Source of the DNA: Candidatus Methylomirabilis limnetica
GTDB lineage: Bacteria > Methylomirabilota > Methylomirabilia > Methylomirabilales > Methylomirabilaceae
Assembly: GCF_003044035.1 (NCBI RefSeq)
Contig: NZ_NVQC01000009.1
Location: forward strand, 120,001-152,000
Length of the DNA stretch: 32,000 nucleotides
Reading direction: 5' to 3'
How positions within the stretch are numbered: position 1 is the first letter of the stretch; the number at the start of each line of letters is the position of its first letter. The notes under the pieces were generated by a model. That model searched no databases, was not told where the DNA came from, and saw nothing but the letters and a program-made list of their open reading frames with translations. This document shows positions 2,334-27,609 of this stretch, in pieces. The position numbers were made by a program, and so were the translations under genes.

Positions 2334-3068
2334 ATGAAGCTCATGATCAGTGTGCGGGACGAGCAAGAGGCGGTAGCCGCTTTGGCCGGTGGAGCCGATA
2401 TCATCGATGTCAAGAATCCGGCCGAGGGATCGCTGGGCGCCGGGCGACCGGAGACCATCGCAGCGATCGTAAGGGCGGTCCAGGCCGCCGCCCCTGTCAG
2501 CGCATCGATCGGCGACGTCCCGAATCTTCCAGGAACCGTGGCGCTAGCCGGCCTGGGGGCGGCCACCTGCGGTGTTCGACTCGTCAAGGTGGGATTGCTG
2601 GGGACCAGGACAGGAGCAGAGGCGGCCAACCTGCTCGATGCCGTCAGTGGCGCATTGCGGATGGCGAACGGTACAGTGGGTCTGGTAGCTTGCGCCTACG
2701 CCGATGCCGCCCTTGTTGGTTCGCTCGATCCGCTTGAGCTTCCTGAGGCCGCCGCCCCCTTTGCCGAAGGGTGCCTCATCGATACCGCCATCAAAGATGG
2801 GCGAACCCTTTTCCAGTGCCTTCCGGAGGCGACCATCACCCGCTTCATTCAGCAGTGCCACGATCGGGGGCTCTTCTGCGCCCTGGCGGGCTCCCTGCAG
2901 CAGGCAGATATCCTCAGAGCCCTAGCGCTCGGCGCCGACATCGTCGGCGTACGAACCGCAGCCTGCGAGGGAGGACAGCGAAGCGGCTCTATTTCCACGA
3001 AGTTGGTGGAACGCCTGAAAGCGAGTCTCTCTTCGCACCTCAAATCCCCCTGTGTCCCCCTTTTGTAA
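2334..3068 (+). CDS. mfnB: (5-formylfuran-3-yl)methyl phosphate synthase (MfnB/DUF556 family)
   Basis: MKLMISVRDEQEAVAALAGGADIIDVKNPAEGSLGA...IGDVP..PGTV...KVGL.G......LIDTAIKDGRTLF...CALAGSL matches the MfnB family as I remember it. The start ATG is at 2334. Confidence 0.8.
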   Translation: MKLMISVRDEQEAVAALAGGADIIDVKNPAEGSLGAGRPETIAAIVRAVQAAAPVSASIGDVPNLPGTVALAGLGAATCGVRLVKVGLLGTRTGAEAANLLDAVSGALRMANGTVGLVACAYADAALVGSLDPLELPEAAAPFAEGCLIDTAIKDGRTLFQCLPEATITRFIQQCHDRGLFCALAGSLQQADILRALALGADIVGVRTAACEGGQRSGSISTKLVERLKASLSSHLKSPCVPLL

Positions 3069-3753
3069 AGGGGGGGTGGGGGGATTTCGTACCTCGCGTA
3101 ACCACGCACGTTCCCACTGTCCTCCTGCATTCCAGCCACTCCTTGACACGAGTAGGTCGCGCCCCATTGATGATCCAGCAACAGCCAATCCCGTTCAGCC
3201 ACCTGGCAAACTCGCGATCCACGCCGCTGTAACGCGGGAGGCGTGAGCGCGCGACGCGCGGAAGCAGGGGGGCGAACGGGTCGACCTTCGGATCCCGCGC
3301 AAAGATCCCATCCACATGCTTCAGCAGCAGCAAGGCATCCGCCCCAACACGTCCGGCGATATAGGCGGCGATCGAATCCGAGGTGACACCCCAAGAATGC
3401 GCAAAGGGATCGTGGCGAGCAAGGGATCGGGAGGGGAGGTAGACCGGAAGTTGGCCGCACCGGATCACCTCCATGACCTGGTTCAGGCTGGAGGCCGGAG
3501 CAGCCTGTGAGGCGAGGTCACAAAGCTCAAGACCATACTGATCCATCGCCAGGATAGCCATCCGGTGCGCGGCGCTTTCAGTGAGCCGTAATCGGCGATA
3601 CTCTGCCCGCACCAGATCGGCAAATACCCCGCCACCCGGAATCACCAACACGTTGGTAGCGCCCTTCCACCGCGCAATGGAATCGAGCAGCTTCCCCAGA
3701 CCGCGCGACCGGCCGAGACTCCCGCCCACCTTGATGACGACGTCGATCTTCAT
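3040..3753 (-). CDS. mfnE: Amino-acid-kinase-fold protein of the methanofuran/H4MPT cluster type (MfnE-like)
   Basis: MKIDVVIKVGGSLGRS...VLVIPGGGVFADLVR is an aspartate/glutamate/uridylate-kinase-fold N-terminus. The gene clusters with mfnB, mfnF-like and mfnD-like genes. Confidence 0.65.
   Translation of the reverse strand: MKIDVVIKVGGSLGRSRGLGKLLDSIARWKGATNVLVIPGGGVFADLVRAEYRRLRLTESAAHRMAILAMDQYGLELCDLASQAAPASSLNQVMEVIRCGQLPVYLPSRSLARHDPFAHSWGVTSDSIAAYIAGRVGADALLLLKHVDGIFARDPKVDPFAPLLPRVARSRLPRYSGVDREFARWLNGIGCCWIINGARPTRVKEWLECRRTVGTCVVTRGTKSPHPPFTKGGHRGI
3042..3087. terminator. C-run/G-run hairpin between convergent mfnB and mfnE-like genes
   Basis: The sequence is AAATCCCCCtgtgtCCCCCttttgtaaaGGGGGGGtGGGGGGATTT, with nested inverted repeats. 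It covers the 3' ends of both convergent ORFs. Confidence 0.4.
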
Positions 3754-4156
3754 GATTCAGCTCTCAGCCCTTCAGCCGTGGCTGACCGCTGATGGTTGAT
3801 GACCGTTAGGAGCACTCGGTCGAGGTGAGAATACCTGACATGCATCAGAAATCCAACGGGCGAGATATACCGGAGCCACTTCCTGTAATCGGCGCGGAGA
3901 GAGAAAGGACCCGCCTTTTTTCCAGGTCGGTGTCAAAGTGTTTTAAAATATTTGGCGGAATACTCAGCATATGACAGCGAACCAACAGTGACTAATCCGC
4001 GGACCGCATAGTAGGCGTTTCATATTGGATATTCCGTGCATTGCCTATTAATCATGTGCTAAATGTAATGAAACCTTATCGTTTACGTCAAGTTGTTGTT
4101 TCGTCTTGACCGTGTAGAATCATCTGTGCTGTACTTATCCGTCCATCTAATAATTG

Positions 4157-4277
4157 GTTCTCCCTTCGCGTCGCTCAGGGAGAACGCGGAGCTGAGCCGG
4201 TACCTCTTCCCGCCGCTCCGCTCCAGGAGAACCAGAGGCACGAAACCGACCACTACGCGGCGGCTCAGCCCCGCGTT
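4157..4277 (+). repeat. Palindromic boundary repeat type C (attC-like mini-unit), copy 1
   Basis: The unit reads G|TTCTCCC-N13-GGGAGAAC GCGGAGCTGAGCCGG...CGGCTCAGCCCCGCG|TTAAAT. It is about 90% identical to 8164..8284, and homology to that copy starts at GTT and stops at GTTA. Confidence 0.8.
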
Positions 4278-4302
4278 AAATAATAGTCCGGCGTGGTGCA
4301 AC

Positions 4303-5481
4303 ATGGATGAGCTTCTTATTATACTTGGGTCTGGCGCTACTGCTGCCATAAGCGAGGGAACTTTGCCTGTCGGTAAAGATTTCTTTTCGTCTCGCAATTC
4401 TACTTGGTCTTCTAACAGTGCAGACTATCCTCACCTGGCTGCAGCTTGTCAAGAAGTCGCAGCCCTCAAGAGCTATTTTGGGGATCTGAATCCTGTATCC
4501 CTCACCGACGTATGGTTGTTCTTGGACACCGTGCTCAAGTATCACTCAGCAACAAGACAGAACAAGGACTATGACTATGACTTACTCAGGATCCGCTATG
4601 ACAAAATGGGCAAGGATGTTCCCATCTATCTCCAACTGGGCCATCTCAATGCCGCCTATTCTAGGCTCAGTGCTGGCATGCATCCTCTATTCTCACCGTT
4701 GCGTAAGAGGATATACGACACGCTCCCACAGGATGACGCAGTTGTCTACTTCCTCGTCGTTGCTGGCTGGGAGTTGAAGCACTTACTCTACAGAACTTAC
4801 GATCCAAGAGAAGCACCGTCAGGGATAGAACTGTATCGGCGCCTACTGGCGGAATTACAGGACTTGAAGGGTCACGCGGTTATCAGCTTCAACTACGATA
4901 TATTCTTCGAAATGTCATGCAGTAAGCCATTGCATCTTCTCGCGGAGGATCAAACTGCGGAAGGCGAAGGTGCAATAGACTTCTGTAAACCTCACGGGGG
5001 CTGGAACATCCGACATGTCGACAACTGCATTATGCCCTTCTGTAGCTTAACCAGGTTCGTCGAGGACACATCTTTTGACAAGCTACCAGACCGTGAGGAG
5101 AGACCAGCTATGATACCCTATTTTTCTTATCCTGACGAGATCGAGATACAGCACCGTGACCAATATCCACAGGTTGGGCAGTTCTTTCGTGACCAGCATC
5201 ACAAAATGAAGAAACTGTTTCAGAACGCGAAGAATGTGGTCTCCATAGGCTATTCATTCTCAAAAGATGACAGACACGTGAGAAGTATCGTGGAGAAAGA
5301 TCTACCGAGTAGCTTTGGCCGAGGCAAGAGAATGTTCTGCGCATTGAGAGGGAGTTCCTATAGAAAAGATATCATGGATCTCTGGAAGTTTGACGAGGAG
5401 GACGGCAAGACATTCAGTTACTATGGAAGCGGTTTCGAAAATACATGCATTGATAAGATCAAGACCTTCCTCAAGTATTAG
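4303..5481 (+). CDS. SIR2-like (SIR2_2-type) NAD-binding-fold protein, stand-alone
   Basis: Motifs occur in the order typical of the SIR2_2 family: LIILGSGATAA, ISFNYDIFFE, FCKPHGGWN, VVSIGYSFSKDDRHV. The start ATG at 4303 lies directly after the type C repeat. The 70 upstream codons of the tracked ORF run through the repeat. Confidence 0.6.
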   Translation: MDELLIILGSGATAAISEGTLPVGKDFFSSRNSTWSSNSADYPHLAAACQEVAALKSYFGDLNPVSLTDVWLFLDTVLKYHSATRQNKDYDYDLLRIRYDKMGKDVPIYLQLGHLNAAYSRLSAGMHPLFSPLRKRIYDTLPQDDAVVYFLVVAGWELKHLLYRTYDPREAPSGIELYRRLLAELQDLKGHAVISFNYDIFFEMSCSKPLHLLAEDQTAEGEGAIDFCKPHGGWNIRHVDNCIMPFCSLTRFVEDTSFDKLPDREERPAMIPYFSYPDEIEIQHRDQYPQVGQFFRDQHHKMKKLFQNAKNVVSIGYSFSKDDRHVRSIVEKDLPSSFGRGKRMFCALRGSSYRKDIMDLWKFDEEDGKTFSYYGSGFENTCIDKIKTFLKY

Positions 5482-5761
5482 GATTTGCCGGAGTGCATAT
5501 CTAGCCAGTCGTTCCAGACCGAATTTGACTCGCAGGCTCGCCAAATCGGCTGAACTTGGTCATTAGGCGGCAGTAGGCCGATGGGTATGTGATTCGGAGC
5601 GTTGCCCCCGTCAGGGAAGCAGGCCAGGATCCCGTTGAGTTCGGCGCCGAAGCGACCATCTGGAGGCTCCCTGGAAGCCGCACGTGAGGCGCCAGAGTGT
5701 AGGACGGTGGGTCTAGCCATGTATCCAGTACCGGGACATCATCGTGGGAGACATTATTAAA

Positions 5762-6541
5762 ATGAAAGGCAATTCGCCTCTCCGCCTTTTGGTCTCTCTC
5801 GTAGTTCTGGTGATCGGCGGTTGCAGCACGGTTTCCGTTCAACCGCCGTTAGGATCATCTACCGAACAAAAGCAGCACAAAGAGCGGTCCAACAATTACG
5901 AGATTGGCCGCGAGCAAGTGGCAAGCATCGGTGAGGCAGTCATCAGAGTTAAGGAATTCGAAGTCTTTGAAACCAGAGCTATCGATAGTGATCGCGTTGC
6001 CCCCGACAGAAATTTCGATGGCGTGTGTGAGCTTCCCGGACCCGACCTCAGGTTTCGCGGTACCAAAGACAAGCCGTTTCCGATTGCCGGTACGACACAA
6101 GCTAACAATGCGACGTATCGAATTATTGTGGTTGCAAGGAACCTGTCAGGTGAGTCTATCGGGGTGGCGTTGAACGCTGATTCTGGCGTGGCAGCCGGTC
6201 CGTGTGCCCATCGAACTCTTCTCGGGTGGCGATTAGTAGGCACAGCAAAGTTTTTATCGGCTGGTGGCCCACCGATTTTCTCGACCCCTACAAGGATTAC
6301 ACGCATCGTCGGGCAAATGGCTGGGCCGGACAACTTTGAATTGGTTTACTTAGGCATTACGAGACAATCGATGTCCCTTCTGTATCGAGAGTATACCGAT
6401 CAGGATTTCGCACGACCGGCGTTTTCGCAGACGCTAAACTATGACCTATCGGACTCTGATGTGATTGCGTTTCGTAAGCTTCGTATCCGAGTAATTAAAG
6501 CTGGCAATCAAGACATCCGGTATGTTGTTACAGCGAACTAG
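5762..6541 (+). CDS. Hypothetical lipoprotein
   Basis: MKGNSPLRLLVSLVVLVIGGC has a signal peptide with a lipobox (IGGC). No recognisable domain follows. Confidence 0.6.
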   Translation: MKGNSPLRLLVSLVVLVIGGCSTVSVQPPLGSSTEQKQHKERSNNYEIGREQVASIGEAVIRVKEFEVFETRAIDSDRVAPDRNFDGVCELPGPDLRFRGTKDKPFPIAGTTQANNATYRIIVVARNLSGESIGVALNADSGVAAGPCAHRTLLGWRLVGTAKFLSAGGPPIFSTPTRITRIVGQMAGPDNFELVYLGITRQSMSLLYREYTDQDFARPAFSQTLNYDLSDSDVIAFRKLRIRVIKAGNQDIRYVVTAN

Positions 6542-6650
6542 TGACCCTAAAACAGCGATAGGAATAACGCAAAAACCTTATGGGCCGCTCTGGGAGCGGA
6601 TATAAAGGGGTGTGCTCGACACAGTCCCTTTAACCCACAAGGTGAGACCC

Positions 6651-6800
6651 ATGATACGACAGACGGTGTTCCCTTTCAAGCTGCAACGGAGCGACGAGAC
6701 CTTGACCGCCCACGGAGGTTTGGCCCTGCTGGCCGAGTATAACCACAGTCTGGGGCTGCGGACCCTGGCTGATCGGCATCTGCCCAGTCCTAGAGAAAAA
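6651..6800 (+). pseudogene. N-terminal remnant of a DDE transposase (IS1380/IS4-like), cut off by the repeat motif
   Basis: MIRQTVFPFKLQRSDETLTAHGGLALLAEYNHSLGLRTLADRHLPSP resembles IS1380-type transposase N-termini as I remember them. The frame ends in the TAG of GAAAAATAGGG at 6795-6803. Confidence 0.5.
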
Positions 6801-7362
6801 TAGGGACAGACACTATTTATCGTGGTGATTCGTGGCGTGTACGGTCATGATCGTGCATTCCACGGATTACTCGAATCGTTGTACCCGGCCACCCGTATCA
6901 TGTGACGCGAAAATAGGGACAGACACTATTATCGTGACGATTCGTGGTGTTCGCGGTCATGATCGTGCAGGCCACGGATTGCTCGAATCGTTGCACATGG
7001 CCACCCGTATCATGTGACGCAACGAGGGAATTATCGCTAGGCGGCCTTTCGGCACGACAGCGATTCGAAAAATAGGGACAGACACTATTATCGTGACAAT
7101 TCGTGGTGCTCGTGGTCATTATCGTACATGTCATGGATTGCTGGAATGGTTGCACCAAGCCACCCGTATCATGTGACGCAACGAGGGAATTATCACCAGA
7201 CGGTTTTTCGGAACGACAGCGATTCGTAGGCACACGATGACAGAGCGACCACTGGGAAGAGATGGGTTCATCTGGGAGGTGCGCAGGAAACTGGGACGAG
7301 TAATACGCGTGTTGCAGAGGGGAAGGCCAAGACAGGACCTCAACGAATAGTGTCTGTCCTTA
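6795..7362 (+). repeat. Module A array: two 3'-truncated copies followed by one full 290-nt copy
   Basis: Each unit starts at GAAAA(A)TAGGGACAGACACTATT (TAGGG at 6801, 6914 and 7073). Unit 1 stops after ~108 nt and unit 2 after ~154 nt. Unit 3 runs to the inverted repeat AATAGTGTCTGTCCTTA at 7346-7362. Confidence 0.85.
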
Positions 7363-7486
7363 TACCCTACCCATCCGGCGAGGTGTCAGACTGCGTGTCC
7401 GGCATCTGGGATGAACTCGCGGCTGGCGCGCCAGGAGAAGACGCTCCGGCCGGGGTGCGCCTACCACCCTGACTGAATCTGCCGAA

Positions 7487-7558
7487 CCGCCGTATACGTG
7501 ATCCGTATGTACGGTGGCGTGGGAGGGGGGAGGCCGTGAGGCCCCTCCCTATCCCGAT
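7487..7558 (+). ncRNA. Group II intron domains V and VI (class C type)
   Basis: Domain V is CCGCCGUAUACGUGAUCCGUAUGUACGGUGG: a CGC triad, a 2-nt bulge on the 3' strand and a 5-bp upper stem. Domain VI is a G-rich/C-rich helix with a GUGA loop and a bulged A at 7551, which is 7 nt from the ...GAU end. Confidence 0.8.
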
Positions 7559-7573
7559 TGGTTTTTACGCAGA

Positions 7574-7603
7574 TTGACAACGATTGAAGATTCAGGCCAT
7601 ATT
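7574..7603 (+). promoter_or_regulatory. Candidate sigma70-type promoter for the phd-like gene
   Basis: TTGACA (7574-7579), an 18-nt spacer and CATATT (7598-7603) lie about 30 nt upstream of the start codon. This rests on a pattern match only. Confidence 0.3.
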
Positions 7604-7634
7604 TGGTACCACTAATGGACTGGAGGTTATCATA

Positions 7635-7922
7635 ATGAAAATTAAAGAAGACATTAAACCCATTTCTTATTTGAAGTCTCGGTCTGCTGATTTAATATCC
7701 CAAATTAACGAAACTCGTAGGCCAGTGATAATTACTCAGAATGGTGAACCTCGTGCAGTTATTCAGGACGCGGAGTCCTATGAAAAAACAATCAATTCTC
7801 TAAACTTAATGAGAATATTGGCGCATGGAGAGAAAGCCATCCAAAAAGGGGACACCATCAAACAAGAAGACCTTTTTAAGCGAATTGATGAAACCTTAAT
7901 GAAAAGGAAGACACATCAATAG
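7635..7922 (+). CDS. Phd/YefM-family type II antitoxin
   Basis: MKIKEDIKPISYLKSRSADLISQINETRRPVIITQNGEPRAVIQDAESYE is a Phd/YefM signature. An RBS (TGGAGG) lies 8 nt upstream of the ATG at 7635. Confidence 0.8.
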   Translation: MKIKEDIKPISYLKSRSADLISQINETRRPVIITQNGEPRAVIQDAESYEKTINSLNLMRILAHGEKAIQKGDTIKQEDLFKRIDETLMKRKTHQ

Positions 7923-7925
7923 ACC

Positions 7926-7987
7926 ATGAAAAGATTCGGGGTTGAGTGGGCTCAGCCAGCGAGTAATATAGAAATAGGCAAGGGAAA
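7926..7987 (+). pseudogene. Truncated RelE/ParE-like toxin gene (first ~20 codons only)
   Basis: An ATG lies 3 nt after the phd stop. It reads MKRFGVEWAQPASNIEIGKG and then runs straight into the repeat motif GAAATAGGGACAGACAC. The call rests on position and on the N-terminal pattern. Confidence 0.35.
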
Positions 7988-8166
7988 TAGGGACAGACAC
8001 TATTATTGTGCATGAATCGGTGTTCCAGAGGGCCGTCAAAGAGGCAAGGCTCAGGGCTGGCATAGAAAATATGGACAGCGACTATTTGTTTGGATTTGCC
8101 TGCATCGGCTGATAACCAGGGCATCAACTCGGACACGGCTTCGCCGCGTCGGTTATGCCCGCCGTT
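7985..8166 (+). repeat. Boundary repeat unit (hairpin motif, recombinase-like fragment, second hairpin motif, type B arm)
   Basis: The unit is collinear with 14288..14472. Its last ~100 nt are also collinear with 17941..18042. Homology ends at GCCCGCCG|TT (8158-8166). Confidence 0.85.
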
Positions 8167-8284
8167 CTCCCTTCGCTTCGCTCATGGAGAACGCGGGGCT
8201 GAGCCGGTGCCCCTTCCCTCCGCTCCGCTACGGGAGAACCAGGGGCACGAAACCGACCGCTTCGCGGCGGCTCAGCCCCGCGTT
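8164..8284 (+). repeat. Palindromic boundary repeat type C (attC-like mini-unit), copy 2
   Basis: GTTCTCC (8164-8170) is complementary to GGAGAAC (8186-8192). The perfect 17-nt arms AACGCGGGGCTGAGCCG (8190-8206) and CGGCTCAGCCCCGCGTT (8268-8284) pair with each other. An inner stem is GTGCCCCT/AGGGGCAC. Confidence 0.85.
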
Positions 8285-8348
8285 AGCTGACTTGTGCGAT
8301 TGCTTCGCGATCACAGTTCGTTCTGGTTAGACAAAGTGATTCAGAAAA

Positions 8349-8365
8349 TGGAATGTTTCATTCCA
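8349..8365. promoter_or_regulatory. Inverted repeat upstream of katG, candidate operator
   Basis: TGGAATG-TTT-CATTCCA lies about 40 nt upstream of the katG ATG. The regulator is unknown. Confidence 0.25.
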
Positions 8366-8376
8366 CGCAGCCGTAG

Positions 8377-10602
<2,226 letters not shown>

Positions 10603-10609
10603 GCGTGGT

Positions 10610-11085
10610 ATGAGCGTTTTCGAGGGCTTCACAGGACGGCAGAAGCGGTCAGCTAACAGCCGGTTCCAGCGGACGGCGCTGCGCGCCGCCGCTGAACCGG
10701 AACGTTGGGCGGCGTGCGGGCATCTGCCTGAGCCGAATGGGAGAACCGTCATCCCGACACTCCACCTGATGTGTGGCCTTCCGTGCTCGGGGAAGACAAC
10801 GCTTGCAAGGCAACTGGCGTCCACGCATCGTGCGGTCCGGCTAACGCCAGACGAGTGGCACACGCGCCTGTTTGGCCAAGATGCGGATTCACCCGAGCAC
10901 GATGTTCGGCACAGCGTCGTAGAGTCGCTCCAGTGGGAGGTCGCCGTCCAGGTGCTTTACCAGAACGTAGACGTGATTCTGGACTTCGGATTCTGGAGCA
11001 AGAGCGAGAGGGAAGACTACCGATCGAGAGGGGATGAGATCGGAGCAGAGATGCGCATTCACTACCTGAATGTGCCCGAGAAAAA
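10610..11085 (+). pseudogene. P-loop kinase (AAA_33/zeta-toxin-like), 3'-truncated by module A
   Basis: The Walker A motif is MCGLPCSGKTTLARQL. The native sequence ends at ...IHYLNVPEK, where GAGAAAAATAGGGACAG begins. The stop codon lies inside the repeat (tracked ORF end 11110). The start codon is uncertain. Confidence 0.55.
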
Positions 11086-11375
11086 TAGGGACAGACACTA
11101 TTTATCGTGACAATTCGTGGTGTTGACGGTCATGATCGTGCATGCCACGGATTACCCGAACCGTTGCATCCGGCCACCCGTAGTCTGTGAGGCAACGGGT
11201 GAATGATCGCCAGGCGATCTTTCGAAACGATAGCGATTCGAATGCGTAAGATGACATAGCGGCCACTGCAAATAGACGGGGTCATCTGGGAGGTGCGCAG
11301 GAAACTGGATGAGTAATACACGTGTTGCAGAGGGGAGCACCAAGAAAGGATTTCAATAAATAGTGTCTGCCCCTA
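11081..11375 (+). mobile_element. Module A, solitary copy (290 nt, bounded by inverted repeats)
   Basis: The ends are TAGGGACAGACACTATT (11086-11102) and AATAGTGTCTGCCCCTA (ending at 11375). The interior is collinear with 7073-7362 and 16226-16517. No intron 5' or 3' parts flank this copy. Confidence 0.8.
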
Positions 11376-11573
11376 TATCCGAACGGTGGCGTTGCCGCTC
11401 CGCTGCGGCGGAATGGCAACGCCGAGCGGATCAAGGATCCGCTGGCTGGCCTCCACTTCGCTACGGTCAACCAGCGGATCTAGTGGACTACAGCTCAGCC
11501 GAGCAAGCTCGGCTCCGCTTCCGCCGCTCATCCGCGCGGTATTAGGCCGATTTTTAGTTGAAAGGAGCGATCC

Positions 11574-11717
11574 ATGAACCGTCAGTTCCCAATTCTTTCC
11601 GCCCTCTCGGTTGTTCCTCGAGCCCTTGGATGGCTCGTGCTCGCCGGTGGGGTTGAGTGGGGTTGGAAGTTCCTCTCTCCCCCTTGCCGGCGTCTCCGTA
11701 GTCATCGCCGCGGATGA
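11574..11717 (+). CDS. Possible 47-aa hydrophobic peptide
   Basis: A strong RBS (AAAGGAG) lies 7 nt before the ATG. The product is MNRQFPILSALSVVPRALGWLVLAGG.... I recognise no homology, and the ORF is too short for the ORF track. Confidence 0.2.
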   Translation: MNRQFPILSALSVVPRALGWLVLAGGVEWGWKFLSPPCRRLRSHRRG

Positions 11718-11788
11718 AATCGCCTATGGTTAGAACCATCGAATGTTCGCGCCGATTCCTCTGGCACGGTGCCTGCTTCTTCTCGGGC

Positions 11789-14251
11789 ATGGACCGAATC
11801 GCGCTCACCATCGCAATCGTCGTCGCTGCTCTCGGATCGGCGCACGCGACACCGCCCGTCGTCCCCGAGCCCGCGCCGATGTGCGTCGAGAACCCGCTCG
11901 AAGGCATGGAGCGGCCGCTCCGCGATACCTCCGAGTGCCCGAGCTTAGCGGCGACGGTCCGCACGATCCGCGCGGTCGCCGCCGAGTTCTTCAAGGACTG
12001 CTCGCTCGATCGCCCCGAGGTCGGGAGGAAATACTCGGAGATCGCCTCGCGCTACGTCGGCATGCCGCCGCAGACGGGTCTGCCAATGATGGTCGCCGAG
12101 TTCGCCTCCGAGGTCGGCAGTGACGGAACGCGCTGCGCGATCCGCGCCGTCGTCAAGGAGGGGTTGCCGGTCAGCAGCGAGACGCGGGAGCAGCTCGTAT
12201 CGGTCGTCAACGGGTTCTTCGAGGCGCAGGACGTCAAGGATCTCTTCGAAGACATCGCCGAGAGCGCGCCGCTGACCGCGGCCGCCAACTTAAAGCGCGA
12301 CGAGCTCTCCAGGAAGTTCGCCAACGAGCTGAACGACCGGGTCGCGGCGTCCGAGGAGCTCCGCGGGAACGCCAACGATTTTCAGTCGCTGAGAGCGAAG
12401 GTCATCTGGGCTATCACGGACGATTCGGCCCGGGCGCGTGCCGCACTCGGCGCGGTCGAGGAGTCGCTCGTTACGTGCAGGGTCGTGGAGGCGGCCAAGA
12501 GCCTCTCCGAAGCCGTAGCGGCCGGCCAGCGCGCCTTGCAAGGCGCGCGGCGCGAGATCCGTGCTTCCGAGAGGGCCGCGGAATGCGCGGAGATCAACCT
12601 TCGACTACAGTACGGCGAGGCCTGGAACCTACAACAAGCGGTCATCGCCGGACCGACGCTCGACCAGTATCGGAGCGTCGTGGCTGCGATCCAGAGGTTG
12701 AAGCAGGACGAAAAGGCGCTCGACGCGTTGCTGCGGCGAGCGGGCGAGAGCTGTCTGCGATTGAAGCAGCAGGTCGGGGTCCGCGACCGGCTGGTCGCCC
12801 ACCATACCGCCGCGAAGGCCCGCGCCATGGCTGCGATCGACGGACGCGCCTGCGACGGCTCGGGGATCGAGGAGGCCGCCGCCACGTTGCGCACTCTGGA
12901 AGGCGCCACCTGCGGCAACCAGGCGAAGCCCGCGGCCAACGAGGTTCTGACCAGGCGCGCGGTGCTCCGCGACGAGCTGCGGCAGAGCGGCGAGTGCAGC
13001 GCGGCGGCGGGCGTGGGTGCGGGCGAGTTCCAGGGCCCGTGGCAATGCCCGCAGCGAGGCACGCTCATGCTCCAGGGAAGCGCAACCGGGGTCAGCGGGT
13101 CGGTGAGCGGCCGCCCAGGCGAGCACTGGGGGACGGGCCAACGTGAGGGAGGGCGGATCGGCGGAACCGTGGAGGGCCGCACGCTTCGCTTGACGATGGA
13201 ATCTGGCGACGGGACCACGAGCCGCATGACGGCGACGTTGTCAATGGACGGGCGCACGATGTCCGGCCCTTGGGAGTGGTTCCGCGGCCCCGCCCGATTG
13301 GACGGTGGCACGTGGAGCTGTCAGCGGCCGGCGGGTTACGCCGGCGGAGGGACTGCTGCGGGGAGAGAGACGGCTTCGCGCAGGACCGCTCGGGTGCCCG
13401 ATATGGTCATTCCCGTCGCGGGGCACGTTGCCAGAACCGGCGGCGGAACCGATCCGTATCAGACGCTCACCGTGCGCGCCCACATCGAGCCCGAGCGGAT
13501 CTCGTGGATCGCATGGAATGACCGACGCGACGTCTCGCTCGTCGTCGCGTCGCGGCCGAACCAGAAGCTGCTAGGTCCAGGGGGCTTCGGAACCGACGAC
13601 TACATCGATCTGACCGTCACGGACCCGTTGGGACGCTCGATGACCGTCAAGATGGATCAGAACGACAAGTACGGCGCATCCTACGGGCCACAGAATCTCA
13701 TCCTCGGATCTCGCGCCAACGCGCCCGCCGCCTACCGCAAGATCCCGTTCGGCCCGACGGCGGGCCAGGAGCTGTTCTTCGACCAGGACGGGGCCTTCAA
13801 CTCGCTGTTCACGAAGGCGGGTCAGTACACGTTCACGTTCGCGTTTCGAGACAACGAGGGGGGCAGGACGGGGTATGGGCACACGAGCATCTTCCTCATC
13901 ATCGCCGCCAGGCAGTCGGCACTCGAAGGCACCGCGGCGAGCGGCGCTCCGGTCGCGCCGGGTTCGAAGAGTCTCTCGTTTGGCGGACGCGTGCTCGACG
14001 TGAGGTACGAGCGCCAGACCGATGAGCGAGGCGTACCGATCGATCTCTACTTCTACCGCACGGCAGCGCCCCCGGGCGTTCCCGCACCCGCCGGCGAGGC
14101 CCAGTGGAGCCGCTTCGTGCGCGTTCCGGCGGACGGGGGCGACTCGAGCGAGCCGGCGGTCTGGTGGCACTCGCGCTGGGAATTCGGTCCAAACGGCTGG
14201 ACGTCGATGGGCGAGAAGGACGTCGCGCCGCCGCAAGCGGTGACGCCGTAA
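11789..14251 (+). CDS. Large secreted hypothetical protein (helical/coiled N-terminal half, beta-rich C-terminal half)
   Basis: The signal peptide is MDRIALTIAIVVAALGSAHA. The frame stays open for 820 codons in a very GC-rich stretch. I recognise no domain. Confidence 0.6.
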   Translation: MDRIALTIAIVVAALGSAHATPPVVPEPAPMCVENPLEGMERPLRDTSECPSLAATVRTIRAVAAEFFKDCSLDRPEVGRKYSEIASRYVGMPPQTGLPMMVAEFASEVGSDGTRCAIRAVVKEGLPVSSETREQLVSVVNGFFEAQDVKDLFEDIAESAPLTAAANLKRDELSRKFANELNDRVAASEELRGNANDFQSLRAKVIWAITDDSARARAALGAVEESLVTCRVVEAAKSLSEAVAAGQRALQGARREIRASERAAECAEINLRLQYGEAWNLQQAVIAGPTLDQYRSVVAAIQRLKQDEKALDALLRRAGESCLRLKQQVGVRDRLVAHHTAAKARAMAAIDGRACDGSGIEEAAATLRTLEGATCGNQAKPAANEVLTRRAVLRDELRQSGECSAAAGVGAGEFQGPWQCPQRGTLMLQGSATGVSGSVSGRPGEHWGTGQREGGRIGGTVEGRTLRLTMESGDGTTSRMTATLSMDGRTMSGPWEWFRGPARLDGGTWSCQRPAGYAGGGTAAGRETASRRTARVPDMVIPVAGHVARTGGGTDPYQTLTVRAHIEPERISWIAWNDRRDVSLVVASRPNQKLLGPGGFGTDDYIDLTVTDPLGRSMTVKMDQNDKYGASYGPQNLILGSRANAPAAYRKIPFGPTAGQELFFDQDGAFNSLFTKAGQYTFTFAFRDNEGGRTGYGHTSIFLIIAARQSALEGTAASGAPVAPGSKSLSFGGRVLDVRYERQTDERGVPIDLYFYRTAAPPGVPAPAGEAQWSRFVRVPADGGDSSEPAVWWHSRWEFGPNGWTSMGEKDVAPPQAVTP

Positions 14252-14287
14252 ACAGCGTAAAAATAAAAATAAAATAGGAAAAATAGG

Positions 14288-14472
14288 AATAATAGGGACA
14301 GACACTATTTATCGTGAATGACTCGATGATCCAGAAGGCCGTCAAGGAGGCAAGGCTCAGGGCTGGCATGGAAAATAGGGACAGCGACTATTTGTTTAGA
14401 TTTGCCTGCATCGGCTGATAACCAGGACATCAACTCGGACACGGCTTCGCCACGCCGGTTATGCCCGCCGTT
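14288..14472 (+). repeat. Boundary repeat unit (hairpin motif, recombinase-like fragment, second hairpin motif, type B arm)
   Basis: The unit is collinear with 7985..8166 and ends at GCCCGCCG|TTATGCG (G at 14470). Stuttered partial starts (AAAATAGG AAAAATAGG AATAATAGGG) precede it at 14271-14297. Confidence 0.85.
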
Positions 14473-14551
14473 ATGCGCCTTAAAAATAAATCCTTCAAAT
14501 AATCCAATGAATGTGTATGATATAGTTATATATACACATAGGAGGTAAGGT

Positions 14552-14746
14552 ATGAGAACGAATGTAGTCATAGATGACGATCTGATGGAATCCGCCCTCA
14601 AGGTGTCCGGCCTCAGAACAAAAAAGGATGCCATAGAAGAGGGGTTGAAACTGTTGGTGCAAGTCAAACGCCAGAAAGAAATTAAGCGGTTTCGAGGAAA
14701 ACTCAAATGGTCTGGTAATCTCGACGAGATGAGGTTAGACAAATGA
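14552..14746 (+). CDS. vapB: VapB-family type II antitoxin
   Basis: MRTNVVIDDDLMESALKVSGLRTKKDAIEEGLKLL is typical of the VapB/DUF2191 type. Its stop overlaps the vapC start by 4 nt. Confidence 0.8.
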   Translation: MRTNVVIDDDLMESALKVSGLRTKKDAIEEGLKLLVQVKRQKEIKRFRGKLKWSGNLDEMRLDK

Positions 14747-15138
14747 TTCTCGTTGATTCGTCCGTCTGGATCGACTACTTCAACGGCAATAAAACGTCTC
14801 AGACGGACTGGCTGGACTCTTCACTTGGAAATACACCCATCATCATAGGTGATCTTATCCTAACCGAAGTTCTTCAGGGATTTCAGAACGATAAAGACTT
14901 TAAGACAGCCAGGGATATTCTCTTAGGTATCCCATTTATGTCGATGGGAGGACAGGTATTAGCCCTAGAGAGCGCCATGAACTATAGATTGTTGAGGAGA
15001 AAAGGCGTGACGGTAAGGAAGACCATAGACGTCATGATTGGAACTTTCTGTATCCACCACCAGCAAACATTGTTGCATGATGACAGGGATTTCGATCCGA
15101 TAGTTAAGTTCTTAGGCCTGAAGACAATAGTCACATAA
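14743..15138 (+). CDS. vapC: VapC PIN-domain toxin
   Basis: MILVDSSVWIDYFNG...DLILTEVLQG...HDDRDFD contains the PIN acidic residues in the usual order. Confidence 0.85.
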   Translation: MILVDSSVWIDYFNGNKTSQTDWLDSSLGNTPIIIGDLILTEVLQGFQNDKDFKTARDILLGIPFMSMGGQVLALESAMNYRLLRRKGVTVRKTIDVMIGTFCIHHQQTLLHDDRDFDPIVKFLGLKTIVT

Positions 15139-15316
15139 CCAATCAAACCACCGGACCCTCGTTCCTCGTGCCGGTGATCTTTTCGTTGGCTCGTAAAATG
15201 AATACTGTGGAGAAAAACAAATATGCAGGCACAAAACGAAACATTATCTGAGAGTGCCGCTGAAGGGCGCGTCTCTCAGCGTCGTACTCCAGAACCGTAA
15301 CTAACGGAGGTGACAC

Positions 15317-15793
15317 TTGAAAAATAGGGTTTATATCGAAACTTCGGTTATTAGTTATCTCACGGCACGCCCAAGCAACGACATCCGTGCAATAGCCAAT
15401 CAGAATGTCACCATCGAGTGGTGGGAGACGCAGCGGCTCAATTTCGATTTATTCATATCGGAGTTTGTCGTTGCTGAAGTAAGTCTTGGGCATCCTGACG
15501 CCGTAAAGCGACGTCTTGAGGCAATCGCCGACATTATGGAGCTGGAAGCAACAGAAGAGGTCCGGGTGCCGGGCCAGGAACTTATCCGGCGCAACGTTTT
15601 GCCCGCAAATGCCGAAATTGACGCTTATCATGTGGCTATTGCTACCGTGAACGGCATCGAATATCTTCTGACCTGGAATTGCACTCATATTGCTAATGCT
15701 CATACACGGCCAAAGATTGAGGCCACCTGTCGGGCGCTTGGTTACGAGCCGCCCATCATCTGCACACCGCAAGAACTAACGGAGGAGGTTTAG
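15317..15793 (+). CDS. PIN-like domain protein (toxin-type)
   Basis: The start is TTG with a GGAGGTG RBS. MKNRVYIETSVISYL...AEIDAYHVAIATVNGIEYLLTWNCTHI matches a PIN-like family that is usually paired with a small downstream gene. Confidence 0.65.
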   Translation: MKNRVYIETSVISYLTARPSNDIRAIANQNVTIEWWETQRLNFDLFISEFVVAEVSLGHPDAVKRRLEAIADIMELEATEEVRVPGQELIRRNVLPANAEIDAYHVAIATVNGIEYLLTWNCTHIANAHTRPKIEATCRALGYEPPIICTPQELTEEV

Positions 15794-15795
15794 CT

Positions 15796-16032
15796 ATGTG
15801 GCAAGACCCTATCGTCAAGGAGACGCGTACACTTAGAGAAGAATACGCCAATCAGTTCGATCACAATGCTGACGCGATATTTCAAGACATTTTGCGAAGG
15901 CAAGCCGCATCTGGTAAAAAACTGGTTTCTTTCAAGCATCGCAAACCTGTGCCATCGAAAATTGCAGCAAAACAGGAAAGACCAGTTTCAAGCTTACACA
16001 CTTCAACGGCTGCAATAAAACAGAGCAAATGA
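15796..16032 (+). CDS. Small partner protein of the PIN-like gene (putative antitoxin, reversed gene order)
   Basis: It starts 2 nt after the PIN stop. MWQDPIVKETRTLREEYANQFDHNADAIFQDILRRQAASGKKLVSF resembles small proteins that commonly sit next to such PIN genes. Confidence 0.5.
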   Translation: MWQDPIVKETRTLREEYANQFDHNADAIFQDILRRQAASGKKLVSFKHRKPVPSKIAAKQERPVSSLHTSTAAIKQSK

Positions 16033-16094
16033 GCGAACGTCCAACCAGCGGCTCGACACCGACCGGGCTTCGCCCGGGCAGCTCAGCCCGCCGT
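16033..16094 (+). repeat. Boundary-repeat right arm (type C-like) forming the intron 5' exon
   Basis: ...ACCGACCGGGCTTCGCCCGGGCAGCTCAGCCCGCCGT resembles the right arm of type C (AACCGACCGCTTCGCGGCGGCTCAGCCCCGCGT) and contains the stem CCGGGC/GCCCGG. A weaker relative lies at about 11466-11510. Confidence 0.6.
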
Positions 16095-16220
16095 GTGTGC
16101 CGGGCATGGCACAGAACTGACGGGGTGCAAGTCCCCGTGCCAGGTTTAAGCAGAGCCGAAGGCTAGGAGAAGGGCAAGAGCCTGCCCCGGACTCGATCCG
16201 GGGGCGTCATCGTGAGGTGG

Positions 16221-16517
16221 GAAAATAGGGACAGACGCTATATATTGTGACGAGTCGTGGTGTTTACCGTCATGACCCGCGCCTTGCTACGGATTACCTG
16301 AACCGTTGTACCCGGCCACCCGTATCATGTGATGCAACGAGGGAATGATCACCAGGCGGTCTTTCGGCACGACAGCGATTCGAAGGCACACGATGACAGA
16401 GCGGCCACTACGAAGAGACGGGTTCATCTGGGATGTGCGCAGGAAACTGGACGAGTAATACACATGTTGCAGAGGGGAACACTAAGAAAGGATCTCAATA
16501 AAGAGTGTCTGTCCCTA
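16221..16517 (+). repeat. Module A copy nested in intron domain I
   Basis: The copy runs from GAAAATAGGGACAGACGCTAT... to ...AGAGTGTCTGTCCCTA. The flanking intron sequence GGUGGG/CCCAgCC could close a helix around it, so it appears to sit in a hairpin loop. Confidence 0.8.
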
Positions 16518-16636
16518 TACCCAGCCGGCGAGGTACCAGACTGCGTGCCCGGCATCTGGGATGAACTCGCGGCTGGCGCGCCAGGAGAAGACGCTCCGGT
16601 TGTGATGCGCATACCACCCTGACGGAATCTGCCAAG

Positions 16637-16708
16637 CCGCCGTATACGTGATCCGTATGTACGGTGGTGTGGGAGGGGAGAGGCCGTGAGGACTCCCCCT
16701 GTCCCGAT
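16637..16708 (+). ncRNA. Group II intron domains V and VI
   Basis: Domain V (CCGCCGUAUACGUGAUCCGUAUGUACGGUGG) is identical to the copy at 7487. The domain VI helix differs from the other copy by one apparently compensatory pair. The position of the bulged A is a G here (16701). Confidence 0.8.
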
Positions 16709-16775
16709 TCTCCCTTCCCTCCGCTCCGGGAGAACCATGGGCACGAAACCGACCGCCTTGCGACACATGGGAGCT
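16709..16775 (+). repeat. Degenerate, internally deleted type C repeat (intron 3' exon)
   Basis: TCTCCCTTCCCTCCGCTCCGGGAGAACCATGGGCACGAAACCGACCGCC is type C with a deletion between two CCCTTC direct repeats. The right arm has diverged. Confidence 0.65.
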
Positions 16776-16780
16776 GAAAG

Positions 16781-17884
16781 ATGCCTTCTCTTTTTCAATG
16801 GAACGACACGTTTCTGACCCATATTGACTCCGTTGATGAACAGCATCAGCGACTGGTTGGCCTGATTAACCAGCTTGGCGACATGGTGATGTCTGGCAAG
16901 GATTTTGATCCTCAGTCGCTTGCCTCGGTTCGTGACAGCATCCTGAACTATGCGATCGTTCATTTCGGTGACGAAGAGGCATTGATACGCACTGCGGGGC
17001 TTGATCCGAGATATCTCCAACGACAGTATTCCGACCATAAGGTCTTCATGCACGAAGCCACTGTTCTGGGAGACAAGGAGAGCACTCTCTCCATAGAAAA
17101 GATCATGCGTCTGGAAAACTACCTTGTCTATTGGCTAGTCCGTCATATCCTTGAAGTTGACCATAGCATGGTCCGCCAGATCCATGCTATGCGCGAGGGA
17201 AAGACACCAACCGAGGCGTTCGATCTGGAAAACGAGCTGCAGAACTCCAGCGCCGAACCCCTGTTGTCGGCAATGAATGGGCTGTTCCTCGTTGTCTCCG
17301 AGCGCAATCGTGAACTCTACGCCTTGAACCGTGATCTGGAACAACGCGTGGAGCAGCGAACGATGGAGCTGGAGCAAGCCAACCGGGAGTTGCAACTGCA
17401 GTCCACGCACGATGATCTGACGGGATTGCCCAACCGCCGATTCGCCATGCTCAGCCTCGACCAGCTATGGAAGGAGCGACAACGTTATGGCGAGCCGCTT
17501 TCCCTGCTGTTGCTCGACGCCGACCATTTTAAGCAGGTAAACGATAGTTTTGGCCACGCCCAAGGTGACGAACTCCTCCGGATTATCGCCGAGCGTTTGC
17601 GCCAGTCCGTGCGTGCCAGCGACATTGTCCACCGCCTCGGCGGCGATGAGTTTCTGGTGATCTGTCCAAGGAGCGACCGAGAGGGTGCCACGGTAGTCGC
17701 CAACAAGATCCTGACTGAATCCAGACCATTGCAAACCGCGGAAGGTGTGGAATGCTGGGATGGATCCTTGAGTATTGGCATTGCCGAGTGTAACAGCTCC
17801 ATGGCCCGGCATGAAGATCTGCTGAAAGCCGCCGATCAGGCCATGTACCTTGCAAAAAGCAAGGGTGGCGGATGCGCAGTCTGA
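16781..17884 (+). CDS. Hemerythrin-domain diguanylate cyclase (GGDEF)
   Basis: The N-terminus WNDTFLTHIDSVDEQHQRLVGLIN is of the bacteriohemerythrin type. A coiled linker follows. The C-terminal domain carries DDLTGLPNRR...LLLLDADHFKQVND..GH..GD...RLGGDEFLV, an intact GGDEF motif. Confidence 0.85.
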   Translation: MPSLFQWNDTFLTHIDSVDEQHQRLVGLINQLGDMVMSGKDFDPQSLASVRDSILNYAIVHFGDEEALIRTAGLDPRYLQRQYSDHKVFMHEATVLGDKESTLSIEKIMRLENYLVYWLVRHILEVDHSMVRQIHAMREGKTPTEAFDLENELQNSSAEPLLSAMNGLFLVVSERNRELYALNRDLEQRVEQRTMELEQANRELQLQSTHDDLTGLPNRRFAMLSLDQLWKERQRYGEPLSLLLLDADHFKQVNDSFGHAQGDELLRIIAERLRQSVRASDIVHRLGGDEFLVICPRSDREGATVVANKILTESRPLQTAEGVECWDGSLSIGIAECNSSMARHEDLLKAADQAMYLAKSKGGGCAV

Positions 17885-17940
17885 ACATCGAAAGTGAGGG
17901 CAGGAAATATGAGAATTGGATTGCGTGAAGGTGGAATTGA

Positions 17941-18042
17941 GAAAATAGGGACAGCGACTATTTGTTTAGAGTTGCCTGCATTGGCTGATAACCAGGACAT
18001 CAGCTCGGACACGGCTTCTCCGCGCCGATTATGCCCGCCGTT
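17941..18042 (+). repeat. Boundary repeat (hairpin motif variant plus type B arm) at the right end of the island
   Basis: The repeat runs from GAAAATAGGGACAGCGACTATTTGTTTAGAG... to ...GATTATGCCCGCCG|TTGAGCGC. The G|TT junction (18040/18041) is 8 nt from the mfnF-like stop codon. Confidence 0.85.
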
Positions 18043-18048
18043 GAGCGC

Positions 18049-19083
18049 TTATCCATGAGAGAGTGCCTGCCCCAAGAGGTAGGCAGCCGCCGCGCATGGG
18101 CTCAATGTTACAGATCCGCTATCGGTTAATACTGGAGGGTCGCACGTCGTAAGATACATCCGCCTTGTGCAGGCCTCCCCCAGGAAGGCGCCGATCCCCA
18201 CCGACACCACAGGCAGACGGAGGCCGTTCTCGATCCTGGAGAGGACATGAAGCATCCCCTCCGTGATCTGTTGGAGCTGTTTTTCGGCGATGTAGGCGGC
18301 CAGGGCGTGAAGCTCTCCGGCCGTGAGATGCTTGCTGTCCTCGCAGGCCACCCTGGCCAGGCGTTCTAGTGCTCCCTCTTTAGTTTTCTCGCGGCCGTCA
18401 GGAGTCGCGCAGGTGTAGTCTTCTGGCGTTAGCCTCCCCAATGCCAGATAGACGTCCGCCGAGATGGCGAAGTATTCAGCCGCGATTCGACAGATTACCC
18501 CTCGCATGGGGATCTGGGACACGATGGCCGCAACAGGCGTGCGGAGGGCGCCCGTGTAGATCAGCTCCCCGTGCGCTAATCGTTCGATATCCCGCTTGCC
18601 CTGTGCGGCGAGCTTTCCGTCCAGGATCGGAATCAGATCGGTGGTGGTGCTGCCGATATCCATCATCAGGCAGTTCGGTTGTCGACTCGCCAATACCCGC
18701 GCCTCGGCGATCCAATTCGTTGCCGCAAGGGTTAGGAGATCCGCCTCCCCCCCGTCTAAGCGAACGATCCGGCCCTCGAGATCGATGGCATATAGTGGGA
18801 TCCCGGGGATCGCCTCTCTCACCGCGTCGATGATGTATGCCACCCCTTCGGCCCTGTCGTGGAACGCATCACAGAGCTCCCCAGTCATGGTCAACACCAT
18901 CGCATCGGCCGATCCCAGATCGCTGTGGATCTCCTGCAGGAGTGGGTGGAGACCTTCTCTCTTGTTCCACAGCTCAAAATAGCGGCGAACCGTGCGCCCA
19001 CTCTCGGCGCGCCCGTCAGTGAATAGAAGGCGGGCTGCCTTCACGTTCGCGCCGCCGATGTCCCATCCGATCACCCGGATCAC
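18049..19083 (-). CDS. mfnF: Hydantoinase/oxoprolinase-fold H4MPT-linked C1-transfer-pathway protein (MfnF-like)
   Basis: MIRVIGWDIGGANVKAA...MDIGSTTTDLIPI is an ASKHA-type fold typical of this family. The gene overlaps the upstream ATP-grasp gene by 4 nt. Confidence 0.6.
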   Translation of the reverse strand: MIRVIGWDIGGANVKAARLLFTDGRAESGRTVRRYFELWNKREGLHPLLQEIHSDLGSADAMVLTMTGELCDAFHDRAEGVAYIIDAVREAIPGIPLYAIDLEGRIVRLDGGEADLLTLAATNWIAEARVLASRQPNCLMMDIGSTTTDLIPILDGKLAAQGKRDIERLAHGELIYTGALRTPVAAIVSQIPMRGVICRIAAEYFAISADVYLALGRLTPEDYTCATPDGREKTKEGALERLARVACEDSKHLTAGELHALAAYIAEKQLQQITEGMLHVLSRIENGLRLPVVSVGIGAFLGEACTRRMYLTTCDPPVLTDSGSVTLSPCAAAAYLLGQALSHG

Positions 19084-27513: not shown

Positions 27514-27554
27514 AATCCTCACGCATTATGGCTGTTCAGCTACCGGCCGTCCCT

Positions 27555-27609
27555 GTAGGGGTAGGGCTTGCCCTACCCAAAGAGGGCGCAGCAAGCAGCG
27601 CCCCTACGC
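27555..27609. repeat. REP-like double-hairpin extragenic repeat, copy 2
   Basis: The sequence is GTAGGGGTAGGGCTTGCCCTACCCAAAGAGGGCGCAGCAAGCAGCGCCCCTACGC. It lies between the glyS stop and the PRT start. Confidence 0.8.

Follow-up and report, generated by a model that had tools for sequence, protein, structure and literature searches.

Module Copies and Terminal Repeats in the Window

The window analysed here is a stretch of 32,000 nucleotides (nt) from Candidatus Methylomirabilis limnetica (assembly GCF_003044035.1, contig NZ_NVQC01000009.1, positions 120,001 to 152,000), and the subject of this study is a noncoding module of approximately 295 nt, bounded by inverted repeats, of which the window holds three full copies. 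Coordinates are those of the window, and the kinase gene, the stub, the module copies, the repeat units, and the intron remnants described below are all on the forward strand. A solitary copy lies at 11084-11377, next to a gene for an AAA_33 P-loop kinase (10610-11080) which is cut after ..LNVPE by the left repeat of the module. The open reading frame (ORF) of the kinase reads into this repeat as KNRDRHY, the homology with other kinases ends at 11080-11086, and the approximately 42 C-terminal residues of the homologues were found nowhere in the window. The truncation of this gene, reported in the initial annotation, was therefore borne out. The module was present in 6 of the 6 assemblies carrying the kinase locus. 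No empty kinase site was found: a 100%-identical protein (P0001) and all the contigs with the neighbouring KatG gene share the insertion.

The other two full copies are located at 7071-7364, where the module is the last unit of a three-unit array and its right end abuts a 3′ intron remnant, and at 16224-16519, within an ORF-less group IIC-like intron. The initial annotation had recognised the same three collinear copies, with limits differing by 2-5 nt from ours. It had missed two left-end-only copies, at 6799-6908 (module positions 1-112) and 6912-7069 (module positions 1-161), and five terminal repeats outside the modules. The first partial copy follows a transposase-like stub and is succeeded directly by the next left end; likewise, the second one runs directly into the full copy at 7071. 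The region 6799-7364 is thus an array of a partial, a partial, and a full copy, with each partial fused directly to the left end that follows. The five module copies of the window have one orientation. In the alignment of the three full copies the mean column identity was 86%, and the copies of the window diverged from one another by 12-17%.

The terminal inverted repeat is a 19-mer, AATAGGGACAGACACTATT, which reaches 20-21 nt when the flanking A/T are counted; the inverted repeats of 15-17 nt described previously are real and turned out to be longer. With up to 3 mismatches, the 19-mer occurred 13 times in the window versus 0 matches in 100 dinucleotide-preserving shuffles. In the 11084 copy the left and right repeats occupy 11084-11102 and 11359-11377, respectively, and the module holds a gene remnant of approximately 257 nt between its repeats. 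The pairwise identity of the copies was 98.7% in the left repeat, 90.6% in the right repeat, and 85.4% in the interior. The TA/AT bases at the borders, which had been taken as flanks and as a possible target duplication, are the outer bases of the repeat itself (AAATAGGG...CCCTATWT in the modules and AAATAGGG...CCCTATTT in the full-length elements described below), and no target duplication was found outside the repeats in the 19 elements compared (10 module copies and 9 full-length elements). The 19-mers outside any module start at 7986, 8068, 14291, 14374, and 17944.

At the kinase locus of one other sample (L121 600-640, compared with window 11060-11084) there is an extra left repeat plus 18 nt. 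The number of partial copies also differs between samples at the locus of the array (L212 3159-3575, compared with window 6799-7364). Since the numbers of left repeats and partial copies vary in this way from sample to sample, the element ends are hot spots of rearrangement within populations.

Full-Length Parent Element and Internal Deletion

The search for an autonomous parent, suggested in the initial annotation, retrieved an element of approximately 745 bp with the same ends, also in Candidatus Methylomirabilis. In several loci it consists of two inverted 19-mers around one ORF coding for 219-230 amino acids (aa), with the N-terminus MPRIARIV.PG.P.H.TQRGN, and the parent ORF is of 225 aa. 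The terminal inverted repeats of the parent are 19-21 bp long (AAATAGGGACAGACACTATT), and 9 full-length genes from 4 phyla were found flanked by inverted repeats of this length. One intact parent (L101) belongs to the metagenome-assembled genome (MAG) of Candidatus Methylomirabilis sp. bin48. A second one is in GCA_040960765.1, with a protein 89% identical to that of L101, and both genes adjoin the same NMO gene. The transketolase of the window is 88-89% identical to the homologues of Candidatus M. oxyfera and oxygeniifera.

An alignment of the module with the full-length elements L101, L065, and L029 showed end-to-end correspondence except for one gap of 455 columns. Every module copy keeps ~150 nt from the left end and ~145 nt from the right end of the parent element. 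Codons ~31-181 were lost with the deletion of ~455 bp, and with them both the HUH motif (NHVH) and the catalytic tyrosine (RYVERNP). Besides the two ends, ~30 codons from the beginning of the gene and ~45 from its end are retained in a decayed state, and the conserved segments of the module are codon remnants of MPRIARIV.PGHPYHVTQRGNYRQ.. and ..IRRHT.TGRPLG..RGRPKK. The 11084 copy has its remnant start codon at 11142 and a premature stop at 11181-11183, and the junction of the internal deletion falls at ~11231|11232; the remnant translation is MPRITRTVASGHP, followed by the stop. The remnant ORFs of the modules end after 13-33 codons.

The breakpoint, ..GGAACGAC|AGCGATTCG.. (spanning sequence GGAACGACAGCGATTCG), is identical in the 3 window copies and in 7 copies from other contigs (L005, L030, L033, L052, L121, L127, and L212), and therefore all of them descend from one deletion event. 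The same deletion was found in at least 7 unrelated flank contexts, taking together the window, contigs of Methylomirabilis MAGs, and metagenome contigs. One of these contigs (L052, DATMXF010000003.1) carries a module copy and attC-like repeats and comes from a MAG labelled "Patescibacteria group bacterium"; the transketolase P0271 of this MAG is 89% identical to that of the window, and the contigs concerned are probably mis-binned Methylomirabilis DNA.

With regard to the gene-proximal ends of the parent, 13 of the 18 examined had an exact TTGACA box 2-7 nt after the repeat (L013, L020, L023, L029, L035, L038, L042, L065, L091, L096, L101, L104, and L242), with a −10-like hexamer ~15-17 nt past TTGACA and the ATG soon after. 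This arrangement suggests that a promoter may be built into the parent end and that the mRNA would be nearly leaderless. Two of the window modules have GTGACA in place of TTGACA, and the 16224 copy and L030 have GTGACG.

Affiliation of the Parent Protein

The parent protein matched the Pfam family Y1_Tnp with 62 bits (E 6e-17). The best of the NCBIfam models was REP_Tyr_transpos, with 74.2 bits versus 25.3 bits for IS200, both scores being under the cut-offs of their models. The search of the sequences of the Protein Data Bank (PDB) with the single parent protein gave no match, and a profile of 16 members matched 4ER8, the TnpA-REP of E. coli. The same structure was the best fold match (E 1e-7, TM 0.67) of an AlphaFold model of the protein (pLDDT 85), followed by the TnpA of IS608 and ISDra2. 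The motifs NHVHF, HLWQGRF, RYVERNPVR, and WSS were invariant or nearly so in the alignments of the 16 members and of 32 proteins, 219-237 aa long. In the AlphaFold model there is a helical tail (residues 157-207), and the C-terminal tails gave a weak Pfam match to AT_hook (E 0.06-0.36) on RGRPKK. Judging by these profiles and by the predicted fold, the parent protein is a HUH/Y1 tyrosine transposase similar to the REP-associated tyrosine transposases (RAYT, where REP stands for repetitive extragenic palindromic sequence), closer to RAYT (TnpA-REP) than to IS200 TnpA. At least 7,970 proteins were found at E ≤ 1e-20, annotated as "transposase" or "REP-associated tyrosine transposase," and distant members of the family were found on plasmids.

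Di Nocera et al. (2013, PMC3733652) introduced the names TIRtrons/TIRYTs for RAYT-like genes located between long inverted repeats, and not between REP hairpins, and described families with the motif GGGGWSAS in the repeats and repeats occurring singly or as dimers (PMC3733652). Most TIRYTs correspond to the TnpA-Y1 subclass 2.1 of Quentin et al. (2018, PMC6006769), which is the RAYT group 1 of Bertels et al. (2017, PMC5581495). This subclass is characterised by the motifs NHVH, WQ/WE, and Y...NP, by SS in the proximal tail, by proteins with a median of 238 aa, and by the absence of REPs (PMC6006769, Table 1), and a C-terminal helix-turn-helix (HTH)-like domain (Bac_DnaA_C / HTH_23 / HTH_28) has been reported for it. 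The parent element agrees with this description in being a single RAYT-like Y1 gene with long terminal inverted repeats in the place of REP hairpins, in its motifs (NHVH, WQ, Y...NP, and SS), in its length (225 aa versus the median of 238), and in that its repeats are also found alone and as inverted dimers in genomes. As for the motif GGGGWSAS, the repeat contains AGGGACAG, in which GGGACAG agrees with 7 of the 8 positions and A stands in place of the first G. The module, which could not be assigned to a known family in the initial annotation, is placed with the RAYT-like TIRYT/TIRtron elements (PMC3733652, PMC6006769). It differs from them in that the window holds only the internally deleted, enzyme-less derivative. 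The papers on TIRtrons, subclass 2.1, and RAYT group 1 do not describe a derivative of this kind, internally deleted and amplified, and we found no mention of "TIRYT," of this 19-mer, or of its hosts in the later searchable literature.

Distribution of the 19-mer

The occurrence of the exact 19-mer was surveyed in one genome per species, a seed that biases the result towards exact matches. The 19-mer was found in at least 120 genome stretches (L001-L120) from at least 10 phyla, with hosts in Elusimicrobia, Nitrospirota, Omnitrophota, Planctomycetota, Methylomirabilota (NC10), Desulfobacterota, and others. The 153 occurrences among the matches listed were distributed in 47 inverted doublets, 23 repeats abutting TIRYT coding sequence, and 83 solo repeats. 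The inverted doublets of these other genomes have spacers of 6-30 nt and are REPIN-like; there is none in the window. The full-length TIRYT proteins encoded between identical repeats were only 43-87% identical, a comparison in which the identity of the repeats follows from the exact 19-mer used as seed. The copy numbers obtained from the genome and metagenome scans are lower bounds. Single matches were also seen in an archaeal MAG, in Pelistega, and in Actinomycetota MAGs, which may be due to chance or to mis-binning.

Intron Remnants Joined to the Modules

The 16224 copy is flanked by the two parts of one intron. The 5′ remnant (16093-16223) starts with GUGUGUGCC and is equivalent to positions 1-105 of intact relatives plus an extra hairpin of ~24 nt, and the 3′ remnant (16520-16708) covers from position ~470 to the end, with domains V-VI at 16635-16708 (RF00029, 31.3 bits, E 0.0066). 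A second 3′ remnant, without the 5′ part, is found at 7365-7558, to the right of the 7071 copy, with domains V-VI at 7485-7558 (RF00029, 37.8 bits, E 0.00017). The matches to RF00029 are full-length at both remnants, with both scores under the gathering score of 40. The 7365-7558 remnant is 91% identical to 16518-16709 (repeat family D4). Because they share the right junction and these 91%-identical intron flanks, the 7071 and 16224 modules were probably duplicated together with the intron.

Two of the copies had been described as lying within introns, in a hairpin loop of domain I. The 16224 copy has indeed intron on both sides, while the 7071 copy has intron on the right only, and the location in a loop could not be maintained: in the 16093-16708 intron the module takes the place of ~360-390 nt of the intron interior (positions ~106-470), which comprise domain I and beyond. 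By comparison with the intact relatives, the module in this intron is a replacement and not a loop insertion. The host introns are without ~55% of the ribozyme, and that of 16093-16708 has lost most of domain I and is presumably dead. In other contigs the extent of the loss varied: the right tip of the module meets the intron 57 nt deeper in L212 and L127, and in L101 both flanks are cut back further and only half of domain V is left beside the full-length element.

The intact relatives, found in metagenome contigs, are ORF-less introns of 652-679 nt (L184 8695-9351, L182 4860-5518, L133 1552-2203, and L155 2336-3014). This intron family shares an identical stretch of 20 nt in domain V and was found in at least 120 metagenome contigs (L122-L241); most of the D1-D4 models of Rfam do not recognise it. 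In comparison with the O. iheyensis intron, the 5′ end GUGUGUGCC and domain V resemble class C. The host has in common with group IIC (attC-type) introns its ORF-less, class C-like nature, the 5′ GUGUG, the upstream hairpin, a domain V of the type CCGCCGUAUAC...GUACGGUGG, and the location in an integron-like cassette island. The module, on the other hand, is not comparable to a splicing-competent passenger nested in such an intron, as it replaces ribozyme sequence and occurs outside introns as well.

Origin and Spread of the Module

These results show the module to be an enzyme-less shell resembling a miniature inverted-repeat transposable element (MITE), that is, an internal-deletion derivative of a TIRtron in a Methylomirabilis-like genome. 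We propose a mode of action for it as well, and we assign to the explanation as a whole a probability of about 85%. The shell would keep the end sequences needed by the enzyme, and an intact TIRYT located elsewhere in the genome would act on it in trans, as is thought for MITEs and REPINs. By analogy with the enzymes of RAYT and IS200/IS605, the transposase would cut single-stranded DNA at the tip of the element and rejoin it elsewhere. Most of the junctions in the window are one-ended, with a tip fused to an internal point of a gene, an intron, or another copy and with the intervening DNA lost. Tip-specific cleavage followed by rejoining could lead to adjacent deletions rather than to a clean cut-and-paste, and from the one-ended junctions with loss of DNA it is suggested that adjacent deletion is the commonest visible outcome. 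The visible effects of the module are the truncated kinase, a probable toxin stub, a transposase stub, and a destroyed group II intron; it is without a demonstrated cellular function.

Several observations weigh against this explanation. There is no intact TIRYT gene in the window. The REP_Tyr_transpos score of the parent protein (74.2) is below the NCBI cut-off of 80, and the C-terminal HTH of subclass 2.1 was absent in the Pfam scan of three tails with E up to 10. Both the movement of TIRtrons and the enzymatic activity of TIRYTs are treated as no more than hypothetical by Di Nocera et al. and Quentin et al. (PMC3733652, PMC6006769). Neither an empty site nor a clean insertion was found that would fix the exact termini and a target rule. 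The divergence of 12-17% between the window copies means that the amplification is not recent, and the two intron-associated copies were probably duplicated passively.

As a rival explanation, the module could be a passive relic, a gutted TIRtron spread only by segmental duplication, cassette shuffling in the island, or co-duplication with the intron, with junctions produced by illegitimate recombination. The common right intron junction and the 91%-identical intron flanks of the 7071 and 16224 copies, the fixation of the kinase-locus copy in five independent assemblies, the divergence of the copies, and the lack of target duplication and empty site agree with it. However, the identical internal breakpoint recurs between unrelated flanks (at least 7 contexts), conservation is higher at the ends than in the interior, and every junction falls exactly at the tip, including the copy fusions and the polymorphic extra left repeat, unlike what random recombination would give. 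We therefore consider a purely passive spread unlikely. The MITE-like character proposed in the initial annotation was the closest of its interpretations, inasmuch as the module is a short, noncoding, repeat-bounded, multicopy derivative; the TA duplication invoked with it was not found, and the parent encodes a HUH/Y1 enzyme and not a DDE one. A classical DDE-type MITE with TA target duplication (IS630/Tc1-mariner-like) would account for the size, the terminal inverted repeats, the multiple copies, and the TA beside GGG/CCC at both ends. In elements of many phyla, though, the TA forms part of the repeat itself (AAATAGGG / CCCTATTT), there is no duplication beyond the repeat, and the transposase of the autonomous relative that shares these ends is the Y1 HUH enzyme, which leaves this origin with a very small probability.

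That the group II intron carries a structured RNA domain was another possibility raised previously, and a small RNA gene may be considered along with it; the fold of the whole module (z = −4.6) seemed to favour such a reading. This value is due to the pairing of the two terminal repeats, since the z-score was −1.05 once they were removed. A hairpin over the old start codon was present in most copies, with compensatory changes at one pair in two sequences; yet the covariation analysis that had been recommended, carried out with RNAalifold on nine copies, gave no support to an RNA fold, with a covariation term of +0.59 and any double change in 4 of 92 pairs. The internal pairings pointed out earlier (GUUGC/GCAAC and others) are present in the sequence, lie in the codon remnants ..IVAPGHPYHVTQRGNYRQ.., and lack statistical support. 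At gathering scores there was no Rfam match in the whole window, and the search of 3800-18200 with E up to 5 returned the intron domains V-VI plus noise, none in the module and no D1-D4 match. Moreover, the conserved blocks are coding remnants, the module is also found outside introns, and the host introns have lost about half of the ribozyme, as stated above. An RNA function is thus hardly credible. Equally improbable is an invertible DNA segment between recombinase sites, an idea suggested by the inverted repeats of ~19 bp around a segment of ~260 bp: no recombinase was found among the neighbouring ORFs, the five window copies and the same locus of the other samples (6 assemblies, collinear) have one orientation, and the repeats belong to an element with a transposase gene, whose ends they form.

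Turning back to the TIRtron-derived shell, one known system comparable to it is the REPIN-RAYT system (Bertels and Rainey 2011, PMC3116915), in which short nonautonomous repeats depend on a single-copy, largely vertical Y1 transposase. The inverted 19-mer doublets of other genomes (47/153 among the matches listed) and the presence in two genomes of the same NMO gene beside the TIRYT gene are points of similarity. The differences are that the module is of ~295 nt and contains gene remnants instead of being a REP doublet and that the 19-mer is not a GTAG-tagged palindrome and is common to many phyla, whereas REPs are lineage-specific. With MITEs and the nonautonomous IS200/IS605 derivatives the module shares being a multicopy, noncoding deletion derivative with the ends of the autonomous element. 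It differs from DDE MITEs in having no target-site duplication, from IS200/IS605 in having true terminal inverted repeats and not subterminal hairpins, and from both in its junctions, which are mostly one-ended and accompanied by flanking deletions.

With this explanation, one common cause accounts for five pieces of "unknown repeat," the truncated kinase, the probable toxin stub, and two dead introns, and the tempting reading of the module as an RNA or a switch is removed. The module is a clean example of an enzyme-less RAYT-type derivative with kept ends, spread, and tip-exact junctions. The most interesting aspect is that the 19-bp end is identical across phyla despite proteins only 43-87% identical; this conserved end is a possible substrate for testing TIRYT activity, which the tip-anchored deletions could make testable. 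A broader proposal is that the module and its junctions are the footprints of an active, cross-phylum family of single-stranded DNA transposons that acts in trans and erodes neighbouring genes, introns, and cassettes. We put it forward tentatively, as a possibility with the balance somewhat against it; if true, there would be for the first time evidence from within genomes of RAYT group 1 proteins still moving DNA, and the 19-mer would be a defined substrate for biochemical work.

Other Repeat Units and the Surrounding Island

Besides the modules, two double-repeat units were found. The first (7986-8086, repeat family D3) contains two direct terminal repeats separated by a spacer of 63 nt, one exact (7986-8004) and the other with 3 mismatches (8068-8086). 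It cuts a short ORF downstream of a Phd/YefM antitoxin gene and is followed by an attC-like palindrome; the double-repeat unit region 7960-8170 was unmatched in plasmids. The short ORF (7928-7985, MKRFGVEWAQPASNIEIGKG..) overlaps the Phd/YefM stop, is cut by the repeat at 7986, and probably represents what is left of the partner toxin gene, in which case the antitoxin would be an orphan. The second unit (14291-14392) has an exact repeat at 14291-14309 and one with 2 mismatches at 14374-14392. A solo variant repeat, AATAGGGACAGCGACTATT, at 17944-17962, is a partial repeat of the 7986-8086 unit and precedes the last attC-like palindrome of the island.

Short tandem copies of the repeat tip ("stutters") were observed just outside many elements: in the window at 14255-14290, before the 14291 unit, in L030 (160-188 and 480-500), in L101 (~3395-3416), and in L079, L055, and L058. 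On the left, for example, they read aaaataggaaaaataggaat|AATAGGG, and on the right, CCCTATAT|TCCCTATAT or CCCTATTTT|CCTATTTT. Cutting and rejoining, if repeated, may have left them as scars.

The transposase-like stub at the left of the array (6651-6797, 49 codons, MIRQTVFPFKLQRSDETLTAHGG...) is cut by the first left repeat and is homologous to the flank of the full-length element in L101. There was no Pfam match for this 49-aa stub or for the ORFs 4093-5481, 5744-6541, and 11714-14251.

All these features belong to an island of ~14.3 kb (3760-18048) that splits a cluster of genes for the biosynthesis of tetrahydromethanopterin (H4MPT) and methanofuran, the core genes around it. It is bordered by an amino-acid-kinase gene (3040-3753) and a hydantoinase-like gene (18049-19083). 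All the genes of the island are on the forward strand, and its GC content per kb ranges from 0.48 to 0.68. The cargo includes Phd/YefM, two PIN toxins, KatG, the kinase, and a hemerythrin-GGDEF protein. The KatG catalase-peroxidase gene (8407-10602) was probably acquired by the island as a passenger in a recent transfer, because its 90%-identity cluster spans MAGs of Burkholderiales, Acidobacteriota, and Gemmatimonadaceae. The island looks like an integron-type cassette array, with no integrase in view.

Imperfect attC-like palindromes of two families are located at gene boundaries. One is the 122-nt "X" repeat family (4157-4278, 8164-8285, and 16711-16762), GCGGAGCTGAGCCG...CGGCTCAGCCCCGC followed by GTTAAAT or GTTAGCT, whose fold as single-stranded DNA had a z-score of −3.6. 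The members of the other family (8087-8166, 14393-14472, and 17963-18042) end in ..GCCCGCC|GTT. Finally, a GC-rich repeat of 56 nt (TGTAGGGGCAGGGCTTGCCCTGCCC...) is present at 1516-1571 and 27554-27609, in core-genome flanks 26 kb apart, with 95% identity; it is palindromic, REP-like, and unrelated to the module.

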